Positions 15,131-59,616 of a stretch of DNA of 64,000 bases are shown here, in pieces; positions within the stretch are counted from its first letter, which is position 1, and each line of letters begins with the position of its first letter. Source of the stretch: Octopus vulgaris (lineage: Eukaryota). The stretch is from positions 25,110,001 to 25,174,000 of the forward strand of contig OX597821.1 of NCBI GenBank assembly GCA_951406725.2. Direction: 5' to 3'. Both the position numbers and the translations under genes were made by a program. The notes under the pieces are model-generated. The model was given only the letters and a program-made list of their open reading frames with translations, was not told the DNA's origin and did not search any database.

Positions 15131-16957
15131 CAATCCACTATTCAACTCTAAGGAGGATAGTAGAAATAGAAAAGGAAGAGGAAAGAGACAGGATGCATGT
15201 AGGTCAAAGGCTGGAACATGTTCAGGAGTGGTTTTATGCCAATCACTCAAGTGGCCCTTTTATAGAAACACTCTTAAGATATCTGTGTGTACAATAGTGA
15301 CACCATCAAATATGTAGGAGCAATATTCCATTGTGTGCCACACCTAAGTTTTGTAGAGTGTTGGGGTGTGGTTCCTAGTTAGGGACATGCTTTTGCCAGG
15401 AGAGGTCCCCCGGCGATACTCATGCTTAAGATTTGTAGCTTTGTGACCAATAAATGCTAAATGTGGGTAGACATGTAGTGTCCAATGACAACTCAACGTA
15501 TAGAAAGACATAATAAAGAAAAGAAAACTATGCACAAAAATACTTAGAGCAATCGCAGGTACCACAGACTATGAGGTAAAAGGTGTGGCAGTGTGGTAAG
15601 AAGTTTGCAGGCACAGGTGTGGATGTATTGTAAGAAGTTTGCTTCCTAACCACATGGTTCTAGGTTCATTCCCACTGTGTGGTACCTTAGGCATGTGTCT
15701 TCTGCTAGAGTCCAAAACTGATCAAAGTTTTATGAGTGGATTTGATAGATGGAAACTGAAAGAAGCCCATCGAATCTGTATATGTGTGTGTTACTATCTT
15801 CCTTGTCTTAACATCATGTGACAGTTGTAAACAAGTGCCACCATCATGTAAGTGATGTCCTTCATTCTCAATCTTCTGTGAAGATATGTCAGGTAATATG
15901 GAAATATATACCTTACTTGGACACAGATATGGGTTGGTGACAGGAAGGGAATCCAGCTGTAGAAAATCTGCCTCAAATAAATTCTGTCCAAACAATGCAA
16001 GCATAGAAAAGTGGACCTAAAAATGATTATGTTGAGGAAGAATTGAGCCTTGATCTAAATTTCTCGCTAACATATAACTAAGAACACAAAACACTGCTGT
16101 ATGCATCATAATAGGTCATACATAAACAACCTACAAAACAAAAGAAAAATTTACTATAAATGATAAAAATGAAAGACCATTTGATCATGCAAGGAGCACA
16201 GTTTGTTGCAACAAGCTTCAACCTCCACCGGGACAGTGGAGGTTGAAACTTTTTATTACATGAAAAACCACCTCCAAACACCTAGACACATACATCCCCG
16301 AACAATACATCTTTAAACTACTATCCTTTCCACACAAGGGAAGCATAATATACAGGAATACTTACCAAATAATGAGAACAGTGGAACTTGGTTACAGTGC
16401 AACAAACAGCAACTGTCACACCATAACCAAGTCCACTTCACTCACCTCTGCTGTGGCCACCACCAGAATCTATGGGCATACAGAAACAGACTGGACAATG
16501 GAGAGAGTGCAGCATGTCCAAATTGTTATAGGATTCATGACTGTATGTCAGTCTTCAACATTATACATAAATGAGTGTCACCCTCATACAAGCTGTCGTT
16601 CATATTTAATGTTCCAGGAAAACCTGGCTAGCTTTGATGAAATGTTACCTTGCTTGAAAAACAGGTGAGAGTTGGCAACTGAAAGGGCATCTCCCTGCAG
16701 AAAATCTTGGATAAATTCCATCTGACCCATACAAAAATGAAAACAATGGATATTAGTGACTATGATAATGACAGGACAACACTGGTAACAATGTTGCAAC
16801 TGCTTACAATTGTGAATAGGTTTCTGCTCTAACAGCTACATGGATTGGACCATTTTAAAATTCTCAGACCATGGGTACAAAACTTGATCCATCTAACCCT
16901 CCTTCAGCAACCCCACTAATACTTAACTCACATTTTATGATGTTCTAATGTATATGT

Positions 16958-17415: not shown

Positions 17416-17876
17416 TATATGATGTTTTACTAACCCTGAAGAAATAGATGTAAGATAAAGTGAATCCAAGTGGGACTTGAATTCAAAGCATAAAGGGATG
17501 AAAATAAAGACAACAAACCTTTTTGTTCTGCATGCCTCTATCTTAAAAGTAATTATGCTGTTATTTAACACCCAAGGTCATCCAAATCCATTAGATCCAT
17601 GATCACTAATGACTAAGCTGTCTTTCATTCATATCTCAGATATCCTTATCTAACATGTCCTTCCTTTTTTTAAGACAGAAAGGAGTGATTTGAGGAGATT
17701 TAGCTGTAATTTCTAACAGACTCAGATACCGCATAGAGATTTTGTTAATGGTTTGCATAACTAGCTGGTAAATAATATAGAATATATCTAGTTCTTACAG
17801 GTCTATATTTAAGAGATTAGGAATTATGAACATTATTTACATTCGATGGATATTTGTCCTCATCTTGTTTGTTCTT

Positions 17877-17922
17877 AACACAACGTTTCGGCTGATATAC
17901 CCTCCAGCCTTATTCAGGTGTC
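17877..17922 (-). ncRNA. Minimal type I hammerhead ribozyme motif (G8 mutated)
   Basis: GACAC-CTGAATA-AGGCTG..CAGCC-GAAACGTT-GTGTT: stem I GACAC/GTGTT, stem II GGCTG/CAGCC, palindromic ACGT stem III. Confidence 0.7.
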
Positions 17923-18063
17923 TTGGGGGAAATTTCGAGCCTGGGTTCTCGTTCCTAAGGTATTTTTCGATGTTATTATTATTATTATTATTATTGTTTA
18001 AGTCAATGCTTAGACTCTTGGGGTTAGTAGCATGTGCTCTTAACAACTACGCCATATGCCCAA

Positions 18064-18109
18064 GACACCTGAAGAAGGCTGGAGGGTATATCAGCCGAAA
18101 TGCTGTGTT
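18064..18109 (+). ncRNA. Minimal type I hammerhead ribozyme motif (stem III mutated)
   Basis: GACAC-CTGAAGA-AGGCTG..CAGCC-GAAA-TGCT-GTGTT; intact CUGANGA and GAAA core. Confidence 0.7.
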
Positions 18110-18389
18110 AACAACAAACAAAATGAGGACAAATATCCGTCAAATGTAAATAATATGAGACCATCATGCAAGTGATGTCCTTCATTCCCAATCTTCTATA
18201 AAAACATGTTTGGTGATATGGAAATATTATCTTACTTGGAAACAGATAAGGGTTGGTGACAGAAAGGGCATCCAGCTGTGTGTGTAAGTATATATATATA
18301 TATAGAAAGAGAGAGGTAGATGTGTGTGTATACATATATATATAGAGAGAGAGAGAGGGAGAGAGAGAAAGAGAGGTAGATGTGTGTGT

Positions 18390-22709: not shown

Positions 22710-23685
22710 TTAACAGAACACACGTGTTAGAAATGGTTTTAAAAATTCCGTTCTGGAAAATTTTCACTCAAAGATGACCAACGTTCTGGTCGACCTACTG
22801 AAGTTGATGACCGAATCAAAGCCATAATTGAACCTGATTGTTATATAATTGTGCGAGAGATTGCAGATAGACCACATACAACAATTGAAAATCACTTAAA
22901 ATATCTTGGACTCGTTAAGAAGCTCGATAGTTGGGGTCCACATAAATTGAAAGTGATTCACTTAACACAATGAATCAATATTTGCGATATACATCTCAAA
23001 CGCAATGAAATCAACCTTTTTGTTTAAAACGAATCATCACTGGTGATGAAAAACAGATTGTCTACAATAAGATCAATTGAAAACGATCGTGGTCCAAGCG
23101 TAATGAATGAACCAGCACAAACCACTTTGAAAGCTGAATTGCATAAAAAAAAGGTCATGCTGTCAATTTGGTGGGATTACAAAGGTGTTGTCTATTTTGA
23201 ACTGCTTCCAAGGAACCAAACGATGAATTCAGATGTTTACTGTCAAGAACTAATGAAACTGGAGGAAGCAATCAAAGGAAAGCGGTCAGAATTTGCAAAT
23301 CGTAAAGGAATCGTGTTCCACCGTGATAACGCTAGATCACACACGTCTTTGCTAACTCGTGAAAAATTATTGGAGCTTGGTCAGGAAGTGATGTCACCAC
23401 CATATAGCCTTGACCTTGCACCATCAGATTACCATTTATTTCGAAGTTTGCAAAATTCTTTGAATGGTGAGACTTTCAATAATGATAATGAACCTGAAAT
23501 TACAGTTTTTGGCTAAGTATCAGAGGTTCTACGAGCGCGGAATCATGAAGTTGCTAGAAAGATGGCAAAAAGTCATCGAACAAAATGGAAAATATATAAT
23601 TGATTAAAGTTCATTCTTTGTATGAAAAAAAAAAAAGACTCTTATTTCACATTAAAAGACCGAAATTATTTTCTTGTCAACCCAA
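22710..23685 (+). mobile_element. Mariner (SETMAR/Hsmar1-like) transposase pseudogene with 3' TIR
   Basis: RSGRP, IITGDEK, KVMLSIWWDYKG, HRDNARSH, PPYSLDLAPSDYHLFRSL (ORF 23043..23516); 3' TIR ends ...GTCAACCCAA|TA. Confidence 0.93.
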
Positions 23686-23961
23686 TATATTTATATAAGT
23701 TTTGTAGTTTAAATTGGATGCGAAATGAAACAATTGTAGGTGAAGACGTCAATCAATTAATAAATTACACACACATATATATAATTTAAAAACAGAGAGA
23801 TCTAATAGATATAAATTAATTTATTAATTGATTGACATCTTCACCTACAATTGTTTCATTTCGCATCCAATTTAAACTACAAAACTTATATAAATATATT
23901 GGATTGACAAGAAAATAATTTCGGTCTTTTAGTGTGAAATAAGAGTCATTTTTTTTCATAC
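23620..23961. repeat. Inverted duplication, about 147-bp arms with a 49-bp spacer
   Basis: 23620-23767 is nearly the reverse complement of 23817-23961; arms include the mariner 3' TIR and GAAACAATTGTAGGTG (HHR-like 3' half). Confidence 0.92.
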
Positions 23962-24319
23962 ACACACACACACACACATGTATTTACAAGCAGAAGGATA
24001 AAGTACACATAATTTATTCTTTCACTCAAAACTTAGACGTTTCCATGTTGCTCCTTTGAAATAGTGAGAACAATCTTCAGTTTCAAATAAATGAATGACT
24101 ATATATTTGTATGTAAAATCATCATTTTTACATCTGCTCTTCCACACTGGTATGGGTTAGACAAGACTTTTTGGGGCAGTTCATTTAATGGCCTCTTGTA
24201 ACATACTTCGATATAGTGAACCTATTCTAATTGGGATACAAATGAAGTCTAAAATTGGAATATATACAAGATAGATATATATACACACAGTGCCTCCAGT
24301 TTGGCCGCAGTTTAATGGC

Positions 24320-31099: not shown

Positions 31100-32755
<1,656 letters not shown>

Positions 32756-33069: not shown

Positions 33070-33822
33070 CATCATCATCATCGTTGTTTAACGTCCACTT
33101 TCCATGCTGGCATGGGTCGGATGGTTTTACTGAGGGCTGGCAAGCCAGAAGGCCGCAGCAGGCTCCAATCCGATATGGCAAAGTTTCTACAGCTGGATGC
33201 CCTTCCTAACACCAACCACTCTGAGAGTGTAGAGGGTGCTTTTTATGTGCCACCAGTACAAGAGCCAATCAGGGAGTACTGGCATCGACCACACTCGAAT
33301 GGTGCTTTTTACGTGCTACCGGCATGGATGCCAATCAGGCTGTACTGTCATCAGCCATGACAATGATTTCACTTGCCTGAACAGGTCTTTGCAAACACAC
33401 TCTATTGCCCAATGATTTAAGGGTACTCTTAAATGGGCTGCTTATGTGACACTGGCCTAGGCCACGGTTATGTTCTCCCTTGGCTTGCCAGGTCTTCTCA
33501 AGTACAACATATCTCCAAAGGTCTCAGTCACTTGTCATCGCCTCAGGGAAGCCTAACATTCAAAGGTCATACTTCACCATCTCATCCAAGGCCTTCCTGG
33601 GTCTAACTCTTCCACAGGTTAACTCTACTGCTAGGGTGTGACACTTTTGCGCACAGCTGTCCTCGTCCATATGCAACACATGACCATACAAGCGCAGTCG
33701 TCTTCTCTTGCACACAACATCTGATGATTCTTAAGTCCAACTTTTTTCTCAGGGTGCTTACACTCTGTCATGCATGCACACTGACATTACACATCCAGCA
33801 GAGAATACTAGCTTCATTCCTT
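33070..33822 (-). mobile_element. 5'-truncated RTE LINE (C-terminus plus 3' UTR)
   Basis: Minus strand RNEASILCWMCNVS..., RRLRLYGHVLHMDEDSC...CGRVRPRK; ends in GGACGTTAAACAAC(GAT)n. Confidence 0.85.
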
Positions 33823-34076
33823 GCTTCACCATGCACCGAATTTAGAAATAGGAGTTAAAACGCCTTTTCTGCCACCATAAAGATCTCCCTGGGAAATAAG
33901 TAAATATTACTTTACTTTAATCTCGAAACAAGTATGTAGCTAATTTGAGTCATATGGATTCCTTGTTTTTTTTCTTTTTGCCGACGTAAAAGAGTGTGTT
34001 ACTGTCTGGGAGATCTTTATGGTAGCAGAAAAGGCATTCTAACTCCTATTTCTAAATTCAGTGCATGGTGAAGCAA
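33821..34076. mobile_element. MITE-like element with about 69-bp TIRs
   Basis: 33821-33889 is the reverse complement of 34008-34076 with about 4 mismatches. Confidence 0.75.
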
Positions 34077-34930: not shown

Positions 34931-36053
34931 ACCTAATGCGAAAAAGACAAAACTGATTTAAAATGGCAGTGATGGTTATGAGAGCTGGAAACAATATATA
35001 TGTACACATCTGGATCCCCAGCCCAATATGTTCCTATCAAAACAACACCTGCTTCTCACTTATCCTCCAATCAATCATCTGTGTACTCTTCTATCCATGC
35101 TATTATGCTGCTGTGGTGATTCAATGAAGCAGAATGCATTACCAAGTATATTGCGTGTGTGTGTAATGACAATAAGAATGGAGTGAGCAAGTTATTTTAT
35201 GACTTCAATATACATGGATATACAGTAAACACCAGGGTTAACTACCCCAATGAAATTATTGATATGTGTGTGTGTGTACTTATATATTTATGTGTATATA
35301 GATCAGTTGCAGGATCCATTAGAATCTAGGTATATCATTATGTAGAGCACCAGAATTGACTAGGTATGTAGTATTGAGCTTACAAGTGAATTTTGAACCC
35401 AACTCGTGTTCTTCTTTATGTGTATATGTGTGTGTGTGTGTCTGTGTAAAGGTAGACGCGTGTTTATGTATAGATGTGTGTGTGTATGAGAGAGAGTGTC
35501 TCCTTGATTCGAGAACGTGTGCTGGTTGTAAACAAATATTGCCGGCAAATAAGTGGTGTCACTCATTTGCAAATATATATCATTGTCATCATTTCAACAT
35601 CTAATTTTCCATGTTTGCATGGGTCAGAGTTTCTTATGGTTGCATCACCTTCCTGTTGCCAACCCTACTTGACTCCAAGTGGGATAATAAGCACTCCATA
35701 CTAATAAATAACAGATTATATGAAGAACTGAAAACACTGAAATGACCCCTTTTGCTTAAGAAGCCAAGGCATGCTCCCATAGAGAACTGCAAGCAAATGA
35801 CACCATTAGTGAAGCTTACAAACCAGCAAACATAACACATGTAGAGGATGACAGGGGTTTTGCAATTTTTGACTACCAAATCCACTCACAATGCTTTGGT
35901 TAGCTCAGGGTTATAGTAAAAGACATTTGCCCAAGGTGCCACGCAGTGGGACTGAACCCAAAACCACATGGCTAGGAAGCAAACATCTAAATCATACACT
36001 CATGCCTACACGCACACATGTATATATATGTGTGTGTGTGTATATATATATAT

Positions 36054-37810
36054 AGTTGAAATTTACAGAAAAACAAAAAACGAAGACAGGTGTATAAACA
36101 AGCAGGTGTATTAGTTTGACACTAAGGAAGGTGAGAAAGTCTCTTACATTTTGATCCTATGTTCTTCAACAGAAAGAAACACAAGGAAATAAATAGAGAG
36201 GGAATTAAAAAACTTGTGGGTTTAGTGGTTAATCATGGCTGCTGGTTGGACAAAGGTAGTTAGACAGGAGAGCTAGGAAGAAATGAGGATAATAAAGTAC
36301 TGGTGATCCTAAAACGAGGGTGTGCATGCATGTGTGTAAGTGTGGATAGGGGCTGGTAATTTTGACGTGTGGATGATGGTGTAGGTGCTGGGAAATGGTC
36401 AGTGCTAGTGTGTGCAGAGTGGTGTGATGTGGTGAGGTGAAGATGTGGGAGTTGGATGTGTGGGGTGGAGTGGGGATGGAGGGAGTTATCAATGAAGGGA
36501 GAAGGTGGGTAGGAGTGAAGAGAGGAGAGGAGGTGAGTCAGATGAAGAGAGGGGAGTTGTGCCCATGTGGCACAAAGGAGCGAAGTGAGAAAATTAGTTC
36601 ATGGTGAAGGCAGGAGTTCAGATGGCCCCTGTGCAAAGACAATCCAAATACAGGCAAGTATTGTAATGAATGCCCAGTAGAGCGGAAATGGCATGGGCAG
36701 GAGCAGGGGAACAAGCCAGGTTGGGAGGTGGAGTTAAGGAAAAAACTGTGGACTAGGAGGTCACATAGGTTGTGGGCTCATTTGAAGGAGGGAAGGAGTA
36801 GGTTGGGGAAGATGTGCGAAGTGGAGGGTGTCGGACTGGAGTCACTGGAAGGCTCAGAGAATGGTGCATTGGAGGAGCAGGGTGGGAGGGTGTAGGTGAG
36901 GGGGAAACAGATGAGCATTGGTGGGGTGGGTGCAAGAAGAGAACAGAGGTATGGTCCACAGAACGTGCTCAGGCAAGGGTAGTGTGGATAGTGGTGAGGG
37001 AATATCTACGAAGGATAAAGAGGCGAACCATGAGTTAAGACTGAGTCTTGAAGTTATGGTTGTCACCGCAGAGCCTGTGCAGATGGAGGAATTGGGAGTA
37101 GGGGATGGAGAATTTGGTGTGGGAAGGGTGGGAGAAAGAGAAGTTGAGGTGTGAGTGTGAGTTGGTGTATTTGTAATGGATAGAGGTAGTGACCGAAATG
37201 TCGAGAAAGGCGACAGAAGTGTTGGAAATGGTGCAGAAAAATTCGAGGTCAGCATAGAAGGATTGGGCAAAAGAGAGGAAGGAGTCTAATTGTTCACGGG
37301 AGAGTGAGGTCGCACCGATACAGTCATCAATATAACAACCATATAGTTCAGGAGTGGGACCAGTGAATCTTGAAAATATTTGGGCTTCAACAAAGCCAAC
37401 AAACAAGTTCGCATAGTTGGGGCCCATTCTCGTTCCCATGGCCACTCCCGAGAACTATTGGTAAAACTCCCCCATGAATGAGAAGCAATTGGGGGAGATT
37501 AAAAGATCAGCCAGATGAAGAAGTGTGGACGTGTCAAGTTGGAGGTTGGGTCGAAGGTCTAGGAAGTGTTTGAGGGCAAGAAGTCCTTCGTTGTGTGGGA
37601 TCACCATATATAGACTCTTGATATCAAGAGAAATTTAGAGGGGCCAGGAGAGAAGGAGAAAGAGTTGAAAAGACGAAGAGCATGGTTAATGTCATGGATT
37701 TATGATGGAAGGTAAGCCACTAGGGAGACAAGGACACGGTTGAGGTATTTGGAGATCAGTTCCTTGAGGCAGTTACAGGCAGAGATGATGGGGCAGCCAG
37801 GATTGTTGGG
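36054..37810 (-). mobile_element. 5'-truncated Penelope-like retroelement (RT, GIY-YIG C-terminal relic, 3' pLTR)
   Basis: NNPGCPIISACNC, DIKSLYMVIPHNEG, AMGTRMGPNYANLFVG, YIDDC, FLDISV, HPSHTKFSIPYSQFLHLHRLC (ORF 37035..37445); HFRSTGHS...LIFSLRSFVPHGHN; pLTR with decayed HHR at about 36140-36175. Confidence 0.92.
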
Positions 37811-53194: not shown

Positions 53195-53320
53195 CCTGTA
53201 TCAGTCGAAGAACAAGAGAAAATAGGTAAATACCAGGATTTGGTTAGGGAAATGCGACTACTCTGGAGGGTTTCTACAAAAGTGATCACAGTTGTTATAG
53301 GTGTACTAAATACTGTCGCC
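53195..53320 (+). mobile_element. R4/Dong restriction-like endonuclease C-terminal relic
   Basis: EQEKIGKYQDLVREMRLLWRVSTKVITVVIGVL (ORF 53147..53344). Confidence 0.7.
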
Positions 53321-53417
53321 AATAGACATAACAAGAAGACATAAAGAATTATCCTCTCAAGCTAATCATATATATATACGCTCTTCTACAGAAAGGGACA
53401 CAGAAAAAACAAGGAGA

Positions 53418-53502
<85 letters not shown>

Positions 53503-53579
53503 TAGCTTGAGAGGATAATTCTTTATGTCTTCTTGTTATGTCTATTGGCGACAGTATTTAGTACACCTATAACAACTGT
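53288..53579. repeat. Perfect 81-bp inverted duplication around (TA)n and a pLTR piece
   Basis: 53288-53368 is the exact reverse complement of 53499-53579. Confidence 0.95.
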
Positions 53580-55175: not shown

Positions 55176-56036
55176 TGTCTTTGCACAGCTTTTAACGCTG
55201 GAGCACTACCAGTGAACTGAGGTAACATTCCTTATTTTTCAAATACCATCCGGAGTATTCGAGCAGTTCCAAGCAGTCCTGTTTTCTGCAAATGCTCCAC
55301 CCTTATTGCAGCTCCTGTTTGTTCCATGTACTTCTCAAGATTTTTACTCGCTGTTCCCAGGGCTCCGACAATTATTGGTACTACTACCACCTTTTTCAGC
55401 GACCACAACTGCTTAACCTCCCAAGCTAACCTGTGATATTTATTGACTTTTCTTTCTTCCTTATAGCATACCTTGTTACCAGCTGGGCATGCTATAGCTA
55501 TGATCCAGCATTGTTTGCTTTCTTTCTCAATTAACACTATGTCTGGTTTCCTATTCTCTGTCTCATGGTCGCACTGAATCATAAAATCCCATAGGATATT
55601 TGCATTATCATTTTCGATGATGCCTTTGGGTTTATGTTCGTACCACATTTTTGCTCTGTCAAGTCCATACTAGTTGCAAAGTGTCCACTGGACAATCCTT
55701 GCTATATTGTCATGACGTCTCATATTCTTTCTTGGCTAGTGGCGTACATTGACTGATAATATGCCATACGGTTTCACCATTTTATCCACAAATTCTGCAC
55801 TTATCACTTTCTATTTTGTATTTGATGTAACTGATTCTTAATGCTTGCTCTTGGGCAGCACAGAGTAGAGCCTCCATTTCCGGTTTTAAATCACTATTAA
55901 CATCCATAGCCATCTGTTTTCTCTGTCTGTCTTATCTTCAAAATCCCTATGAAATTGTCTATAACATTTTCTTTATCTACCTATTTCAGTTTCATTCACT
56001 GTCAAGTGCTTGTAAAGTGCTTTATCTTTGCAATCT
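55176..56036 (-). mobile_element. R4/Dong-clade non-LTR retrotransposon 3' fragment
   Basis: CCHC finger (CRIC...ETVWHIISQC), RKPDIVLI, IVGALG, LQKTGLLGTARILR (ORF 55232..55648); flanked by (TAG)n and (TAA)n. Confidence 0.9.
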
Positions 56037-58385: not shown

Positions 58386-59616
58386 CGAGGGTGGGTTGAA
58401 AAGTCCATAGACTATCTATGAAAGAGTGATGCTTAGAAATCTTCCATGCATTCATTTCAATTCTACATATTAACCACATTGTTTCGTTTCAGGTAAACTG
58501 ACATCTGACTATTCAAAGAAAACTTCAAATGTAACTAGTAGTAACTTCTCTCGAAAATAGATAAAATTAAGCATCGTGATGTTATCACGTACCTTCAGAA
58601 AAAGGCTTTAGTGCCCCAAGGACGTTCATGCTGGCATGGTTGCTACACCACAGGATAACGCTCCAGCTTTATCAACAGTGCAAAAGCGGACAGCTGAATT
58701 TAGGAGGGGAAGATAGTCTTGAAGATGATCCAAGGTCTGGATGTCCCACAACTGCCACCACCGAGAAAAACATCGATCGTGGTCACCACATGTTGGTGGA
58801 TAACAGGCGATTGACTATAACTCAAATAGCCAATGTTATTAGCATATCCTGGGAGAGAGTTGAGGATATTCTGCACAATGAACTTGGCGTAACGAAGGTT
58901 CATGCACGATGGGTGCCACGTCTTCTGACACCTGATCAAAAGCGCACCAGGTTGATCACATTACGGGAGTATCTGACATTGTTTGAGGCAGATACGGCTA
59001 GTTTCCTTGAACGTTTCCTATGTCTGTTGGCTACATCACTTTGAACAGAAACAGAGGCAAACATGCAGTGGAAACACTCCTCTTCATCCGCTCCAAAGAA
59101 AGCAGATCCTTTCATCTGCAGAGATGGCGATACCCTCAGTTTTTTGGGATGAAAAAGGCATTGTATTTATTGACTATCTTCAAAATGATCACACCATCAA
59201 TGCCAACTTGCCAAGGCAGTTACGACAGGCTATAAAGACCAAACGCACTGAAAAACTAATGAAGAGGGTCTTGTTTCATTAGAACAATGTTTCAATACAC
59301 AAGTCCTTGGTTTCAATGGTTGCTGTGCATAACTGGTTGATCACCCTCCTTATTTTAGTGATTTTGTACCATCTGACTATCGTTTGTTTCCCAACACGAA
59401 AAACGCTTGATTAGGCTCCAGTATCGCGGTGATGATGACGTCTTATCTGATGTTGACGTTTTTGACCAACAGAATTGCTTCTTCACCAATGAGATCCAAG
59501 CACTGCAACACTAATGGAAGTGTATTTAAAATGGACTTTGTTAAAAAATGAACTTCATTTGGTCACATTCCATGGGAGTGTTTTGCCCAACATATGAACT
59601 TTTCAGTCGACCCTCA
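58386..59616 (+). mobile_element. Near full-length mariner (irritans/Hsmar2-like), decayed
   Basis: TA|CGAGGGTGGGTTGAAAAGT...ACTTTTCAGTCGACCCTCA|TA; SLEDDPRSGCP, ARWVPRLLTPDQK, SVFWDEKGIVFIDYL, HPPYFSDFVPSDYRLFP. Confidence 0.93.

Follow-up and report, generated by a model that had tools for sequence, protein, structure and literature searches.

The insertion in the window

In the 64,000-nt stretch of Octopus vulgaris DNA analysed here (the window), two inverted arms with hammerhead motifs enclose a tRNA-like head, which raises the question of what kind of element inserted at this place and which RNA polymerase would transcribe it. The original prediction was a SINE-like element driven by Pol III, terminated by hammerheads and mobilised by a Penelope-like element (PLE). 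Our analysis points to an inverted two-arm insertion of the pseudo-LTR (pLTR) of a PLE, in which a captured tRNA-derived sequence at the pLTR start is probably an internal Pol III promoter.

Inspection of the sequence located every predicted part in its place, namely the 96-nt inverted arms, two minimal hammerheads with different lesions, the tRNA-like head and the (AAT)n stretch. The arms as first drawn (17832-17927 and 18059-18154, 96 nt each) are 93% complementary and separated by a 131-nt spacer. The limits of the right arm stand; the start of the left arm had to be moved, since this arm runs on for another 34 nt to 17798. The features are as follows (window positions).

17798..18061, minus strand: full pLTR copy (locus L001), unit positions 1-275, with the long 3' end (tail); 89% to the family majority
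17990..18061, minus strand: tRNA-derived head, putative Pol III type 2 promoter, broken in the window copy; 3' boundary approximate
18044..18054, minus strand: A box, TGGCGTAGTTG, from the sequence; the family majority ends in GG
18008..18009, minus strand: site of a 12-nt deletion with loss of the B box, from an alignment of 30 copies
17972..17999, minus strand: (AAT)n linker; boundaries approximate
17798..17952, minus strand: N-terminal coding part of the PLE ORF within the pLTR; the family ATG is at unit position 122
17877..17922, minus strand: minimal type I hammerhead of the left arm, with a G8 lesion, from sequence and fold
17798..17823, minus strand: optional PLE tail, 25-31 nt, on the left arm only, from the bimodal 3' ends of the family
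18059..18154, plus strand: second pLTR copy, inverted and 5'-truncated, unit positions 146-241, with the short 3' end; 96% to the family majority
18064..18109, plus strand: minimal type I hammerhead of the right arm, with a stem III lesion, from sequence and fold

On the minus strand, the left-arm hammerhead has stem I at 17922-17918, the core CUGAAUA with its G8 lesion and an intact GAAACGUU, and its predicted cut falls between 17882 and 17881. The right-arm hammerhead, on the plus strand, combines an intact core (CUGAAGA) with a damaged stem III (GAAAUGCU). The start codon is ACG rather than ATG in 6 of the 30 aligned copies, and the window copy likewise has ACG (17950-17952), together with in-frame stops. 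The right-arm copy meets the head through a 3-nt microhomology. The window copy has no target duplication, possibly because the repeat adjoining its right end displaced it; this second, common repeat lies at 18145-18279, against the right arm, and again at 15826-15960. We read the locus as a full, long-ended pLTR joined to an inverted, short-ended copy of positions 146-241, which would have been damaged afterwards.

The window also holds three further long inverted repeats (23619-23962, 33821-34076 and 53288-53579), possibly MITEs or other pLTR pairs. By eye, translations at 23028-23516, 31423-31995, 58580-59044 and 55232-55669 look like remnants of Tc1/mariner-like transposases and of a restriction-like-endonuclease LINE; 55232-55669 had no Pfam match.

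A repeat family with a tRNA-derived head

A 24-mer from the tail has 8,224 exact matches in the 2.8-Gb genome and its reversed control has none, so the element is not a chance arrangement; a 25-mer from the head has 2,049 exact matches, again with no match for the reversed control. Alignment of 30 copies gave a family unit of 275 nt with A and B boxes intact in the majority, as the consensus had been expected to show, and 42 of 98 decayed arms still agree with consensus in both boxes. The window copy lost its B box through the 12-nt deletion at 18009/18008. Head and tail were also predicted to travel together, and they co-occur in 28 of the 30 head-sampled loci, two of which represent one insertion.

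The family head shares 52 of 74 letters with the genome's own tRNA-Arg(TCT), with a score of 62 against a mean of 20 and a maximum of 43 for shuffled sequences; this comparison covered only about six isotypes of the genome's tRNAs and does not fix the isotype of the source. A tRNA-Ile, an isotype absent from the sampled tRNAs, may also be the source. Rfam and ARAGORN called neither a tRNA nor a hammerhead in the window, in five intact loci or in a 301-nt stretch.

Several other repeats and retroelements have often inserted into the (AAT)n linker (L032, L041, L046, L033, L117, L129, L138, L142 and L148). In four loci (L052, L054, L055 and L097), the same 3' end of a restriction-like-endonuclease LINE, which we take to be R4/Dong-like, lies on the linker directly before the pLTR tail. 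LINE and pLTR tail may have moved as a chimeric RNA unit, because L054 and L055 have no head upstream.

The unit as the pLTR of a coding PLE

Judged by sequence, the 275-nt unit is the pLTR of an autonomous, protein-coding Penelope/Poseidon-like element. The finding of such a PLE with the same pLTR bears out the predicted mobilisation by a PLE and the inverted 5' pLTR. Its majority sequence, built from 57 segments at a minimum depth of 3, is a 2,658-nt unit with one ORF of 835 aa, whose ATG lies at pLTR position 122, upstream of the hammerhead, and whose stop lies about 30 nt before the next head. The order is therefore head, (AAT)n, ORF start, hammerhead, tail, remainder of the 835-aa RT ORF, stop, about 30 nt and the next head.

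Several samples of loci link the pLTR and the ORF. About 16 of 121 head-bearing arms have in common an upstream flank whose translation is a PLE C-terminus. All 30 loci chosen by the last kb of the ORF run on into the pLTR (the set contains the query itself and about 10 duplicates from contig C31). From the other side, the tail continues in frame into the PLE N-terminus in 25 of 30 loci, retrieved with a query that contained part of the tail, and two of them (L255 and L271) start at the head. The pLTRs include the ORF start, and inverted pairs make up 51 of the 85 loci sampled by their tails. Decay in the family amounts to about 6%, and no single copy seen has an intact ORF. One PLE insertion, together with its flanks, is found at about 10 places on contig C31 (L229, L230, L235, L237-L242 and L244) with 95-98% identity over 4 kb, which is a large multi-copy duplication.

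The RT domain matches Pfam RVT_1 (E 2e-10). Forty-six homologs of the ORF were found, including an 836-aa Anolis protein, which we infer to be Poseidon_Ac; it matches at 35% in the homolog search and at 37% when aligned over nearly the full length. The closest, P0001, reaches 56% over nearly the full length, in an alignment that begins at residue 11, and an 847-aa homolog at 56% aligns across the hammerhead-encoded residues. A Neptune-like ORF reaches 31% over 320 aa. The C-terminal 183 aa have no Pfam match and align with PLE homologs, of which P0043 carries PF01541; a motif recognised by eye in this region may be that of a GIY-YIG endonuclease. The Penelope/Poseidon-type label draws on these protein similarities and on known motifs and should be taken as provisional.

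Other candidates for the partner were rejected. Pfam GIY-YIG matches belonged to Neptune-like families, with the tail shared by 0 of 30 loci; a search for tails with non-AAT sequence upstream gave four matches, all rearranged copies; and a decayed Neptune-like element within the window carries an end repeat unlike this one. The last of these lies at about 36050-37800 on the minus strand, with an RT remnant at 37035-37454 and its own end repeat bearing a degenerate hammerhead-like motif. A young Neptune-like PLE family (L061-L090) has many identical open frames of 781 aa, and some of its relatives have at their end a hammerhead-like motif whose core is altered.

Hammerhead, element ends and integration

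The prediction of a minimal, dimer-type hammerhead is upheld by its core and stems, which fit the minimal PLE type I: an extra base follows A9, the pair G10.1-C11.1 is present and stem III is palindromic. The commonest core is CUGAUGA (113 of 184 arms), and the proposed consensus core CUGAAGA survives as a minority form (33 of 184); the hammerhead is fully intact in 58 of the 184 arms. Stems I and II form in the predicted fold (-13 kcal/mol), and the minimum-energy fold of the dimer has no pairing through stem III. Among 1,883 pair cells of the stems there are seven double changes, of which three are still paired; covariation is not expected here because copies decay neutrally. Its cleavage is predicted to be weak and to require a dimer or the help of protein.

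The predicted cut triplet is GUU, between unit positions 191 and 192, and it does not mark the ends of the element. In 87 tail-sampled loci (146 arms), 3' ends are bimodal, at about 240-250 and about 272-275, that is, about 50 and 84 nt beyond the cut. Because of this position, the element is not hammerhead-terminated, contrary to what had been proposed. Loose ends of RNA reads from an organism of the same or a related label fall at the same two 3' positions. On the 5' side, 9 of 146 arms begin at 191-195, a place that also has a palindrome of 8 nt and shares a microhomology with the head, so this cluster near the cut site is confounded. Of 243 junction matches, the 100 read by eye were for the most part small deletions or joins at microhomologies, and they formed no sharp peak at 192.

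The two 3' ends are distributed in a regular manner. Among 137 loci (overlaps and duplicates removed; 30 of them picked with the inverted window copy included), 88 are inverted pairs with the tails pointing outward. One long end is combined with one short end in 81 of these pairs, five have two short ends and two have two long ends (P 2e-17), which suggests that the two target strands are primed at different sites of the RNA. Target duplications, defined as flanking direct matches of at least 11 nt with one mismatch allowed, accompany 50 of the 88 pairs and 1.3% of mismatched pairs; they are about 10-16 nt long. An optional tail, one long and one short end and short target duplications are known Penelope traits, and signatures of this kind are described for PLEs in the available parts of PMC8557442, PMC3846280 and PMC11167929. 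According to the accessible text of PMC11167929, two internal RT start sites delimit the PLE tail, and the protein, predicted to be a dimer, nicks both strands and uses uncleaved RNA as its substrate.

Applied to the octopus family, this model (PMC11167929) and our own inference would have a protein dimer nick both target strands. Reverse transcription would begin internally on uncleaved RNA, at about 275 for one strand and about 244-250 for the other, and the two cDNAs would unite head to head at microhomologies. The ends of the element are not set by the hammerhead. The near-strict pairing of long with short ends (81 of 88) adds a quantitative constraint to the two-start-site model of PLE integration.

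A putative Pol III promoter in the pLTR

It is fairly likely that Pol III starts at the head of any intact pLTR, around position -2, and gives short RNAs that contain all cis signals. Solo and 3' pLTRs would then yield short SINE-like RNAs; since the unit contains no TTTT, transcription from a 5' pLTR may run through to the full RNA. A bolder version, in which the whole coding retrotransposon (~2.9 kb) would be transcribed by Pol III from the captured tRNA promoter, its ORF purged of TTTT and its solo pLTRs serving as its own SINE, seems doubtful to us. Uncapped Pol III RNA makes a poor mRNA.

The alternative to be weighed is an ordinary Poseidon-type PLE that Pol II transcribes from its own or a host promoter. 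The head would then be a tRNA/SINE remnant carried along as a passenger in the 3' UTR, the 5' ends would pile up only through cDNA stalling and fold-back, and the finding would be reduced to an ordinary PLE insertion. We regard this as possible and on balance unlikely. That both boxes are intact in the majority of the family, and still match consensus in 42 of 98 decayed arms, argues against a mere passenger.

The 5' ends bear on both readings. Among 75 head-bearing segments (from 85 tail-sampled loci, after 5 of 90 loci had been dropped as overlaps or duplicates), 32 begin at -11 to +5 and three at -13, 12 extend beyond these in the upstream direction, as far as the UTR or ORF, and the remaining 28 are scattered over 6-65. 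Genome-wide, 2,089 heads extend to -2 and only 368 to -13 in the native UTR context, so that about 80% of heads end right at the head start; the two patterns have 20 and 23 letters, and the ratio of about 18-22% is hence approximate. By eye, many copies break off at the A at -2, where unrelated sequence adjoins (an automated split of the junctions was noisy). The head start is spanned by a 12-nt palindrome, because of which snap-back could account for part of the pile-up, as the passenger reading would have it; head-to-head fold-back junctions do occur and are explained by this palindrome, and the available text on Adineta PLEs reports palindromic pLTR 5' ends as well as TATA/Inr-like motifs (PMC3846280). 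Against fold-back as the sole cause stand about 20 of the 35 ends around -2, which, read by eye, show no fold-back and lie next to unrelated flank or to a remote site in the other arm.

TTTT is absent from the sense strand of the 2,658-nt unit, where 4.7 occurrences are expected from base shuffles (P 0.007), 2.9 from synonymous shuffles (P 0.03) and 2.4 from a first-order Markov model (P 0.08). Pieces of Neptune-like control ORFs contain 7, 3 and 4, the 7 in 1,791 nt at equal T content. GGGG is likewise absent from the unit, and the family protein is low in Phe, equally so in some homologs. The absence of TTTT is a weak signal, suggestive in that it fits Pol III read-through, and it tells against a passenger head. 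In three unstranded RNA-seq runs from an organism of the same label, both strands are covered about equally and 75-80% of the reads continue into unlike sequence; they look like host read-through, a point in favour of the passenger reading. Being unstranded, even across the two strands and for the most part located within host transcripts, these data are silent on the polymerase.

A further reading, an independent non-autonomous SINE or retrozyme that is driven by Pol III, ended by hammerheads and borrows the PLE enzyme, is very improbable and from the sequences largely refuted: most copies are indeed short and lack the ORF, head and tail co-occur and short RNAs would in practice act SINE-like, yet the coding element has the entire unit, with its head, as its pLTR. 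A SINE that is a distinct family sharing only the 3' tail of its partner would look otherwise. Comparison of 73 short with 82 ORF-linked segments revealed no diagnostic site (smallest p 0.03, 20 variable sites) and similar divergence (5.8% and 6.5%); because variants and age are shared, the short form is no separate lineage, and the original prediction of a separate non-autonomous element does not stand. Tandem units with hammerhead-cut borders, which mark retrozymes, were not seen in the sampled loci, where the copies are inverted or solo and end at about 244-250 and 275 instead of the cut site.

We therefore return to the PLE pLTR with a probable Pol III promoter at its start. Its head would open a simple way for a coding PLE to give rise to descendants that resemble SINEs or retrozymes, with no separate fusion event. 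If the full Pol III reading were true, the family would be a snapshot of the birth of PLE-dependent SINEs and retrozymes.

Comparison with known systems

As regards a promoter of this kind, the nearest parallels are the TRIMp3 elements and Sm-alpha of Schistosoma, a short hammerhead-bearing repeat with tRNA-like Pol III boxes. The PLE architecture of the octopus family is already known, and its unusual part is the tRNA-derived head. In the literature searched, judged by titles, the openings of abstracts and accessible passages, no PLE pLTR with a promoter of tRNA or Pol III type was found; an earlier description may exist in Dfam, Repbase, subscription journals or supplements. The same holds for the available parts of the retrozyme literature (PMC7229834; bioRxiv 10.64898/2026.07.22.740005).

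Autonomous retrotransposons are generally assigned to Pol II and SINEs to Pol III, according to the part of PMC10886601 that is available, and a PLE with a tRNA-type promoter in its pLTR would blur this division. The TRIMp3 elements Cassandra, Helenus and Ajax in the same text likewise have a Pol III promoter derived from a small RNA in their terminal repeat. They are non-coding LTR elements below 1.3 kb, and their autonomous partners are argued there to need Pol II, whereas the promoter-like head in octopus lies in the repeat of a protein-coding PLE.

The nearest counterparts are Poseidon_Ac of the green anole (PMC11167929) and Pen2a of Adineta (PMC3846280), as far as these texts could be accessed. 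Like the octopus family, they have a single ORF of about 835-842 aa, which starts inside the pLTR and overlaps the hammerhead; they share with it an inverted 5'-truncated pLTR, an optional tail of about 30 nt from two internal RT start sites, short target duplications, a palindrome at the pLTR 5' end and an uncleaved RNA template. Unlike either of them in the portions available, the octopus pLTR has an A/B-box head of tRNA origin at its start, followed by an (AAT)n linker, about 80% of its heads end at the head start, and its unit lacks TTTT. For Pen2a, the description gives TATA/Inr-like motifs.

With the minimal type I hammerheads of metazoan PLEs, as given in the accessible part of PMC4209133, the octopus motif shares the core, the extra nucleotide between 9 and 10.1, G10.1-C11.1, the palindromic 15.2-16.2 and a stem III that is not stable. 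There is no essential difference from those hammerheads, the octopus cut triplet being predicted as GUU. Metazoan non-LTR retrozymes are likewise short hammerhead-bearing repeats related to pLTRs; in the available text they are tandem, delimited by hammerhead cuts and yield circles (PMC7229834; bioRxiv 10.64898/2026.07.22.740005). The octopus family differs in that its copies are dispersed and inverted, have their ends at RT start sites and are the same sequence as the pLTR of a coding element.
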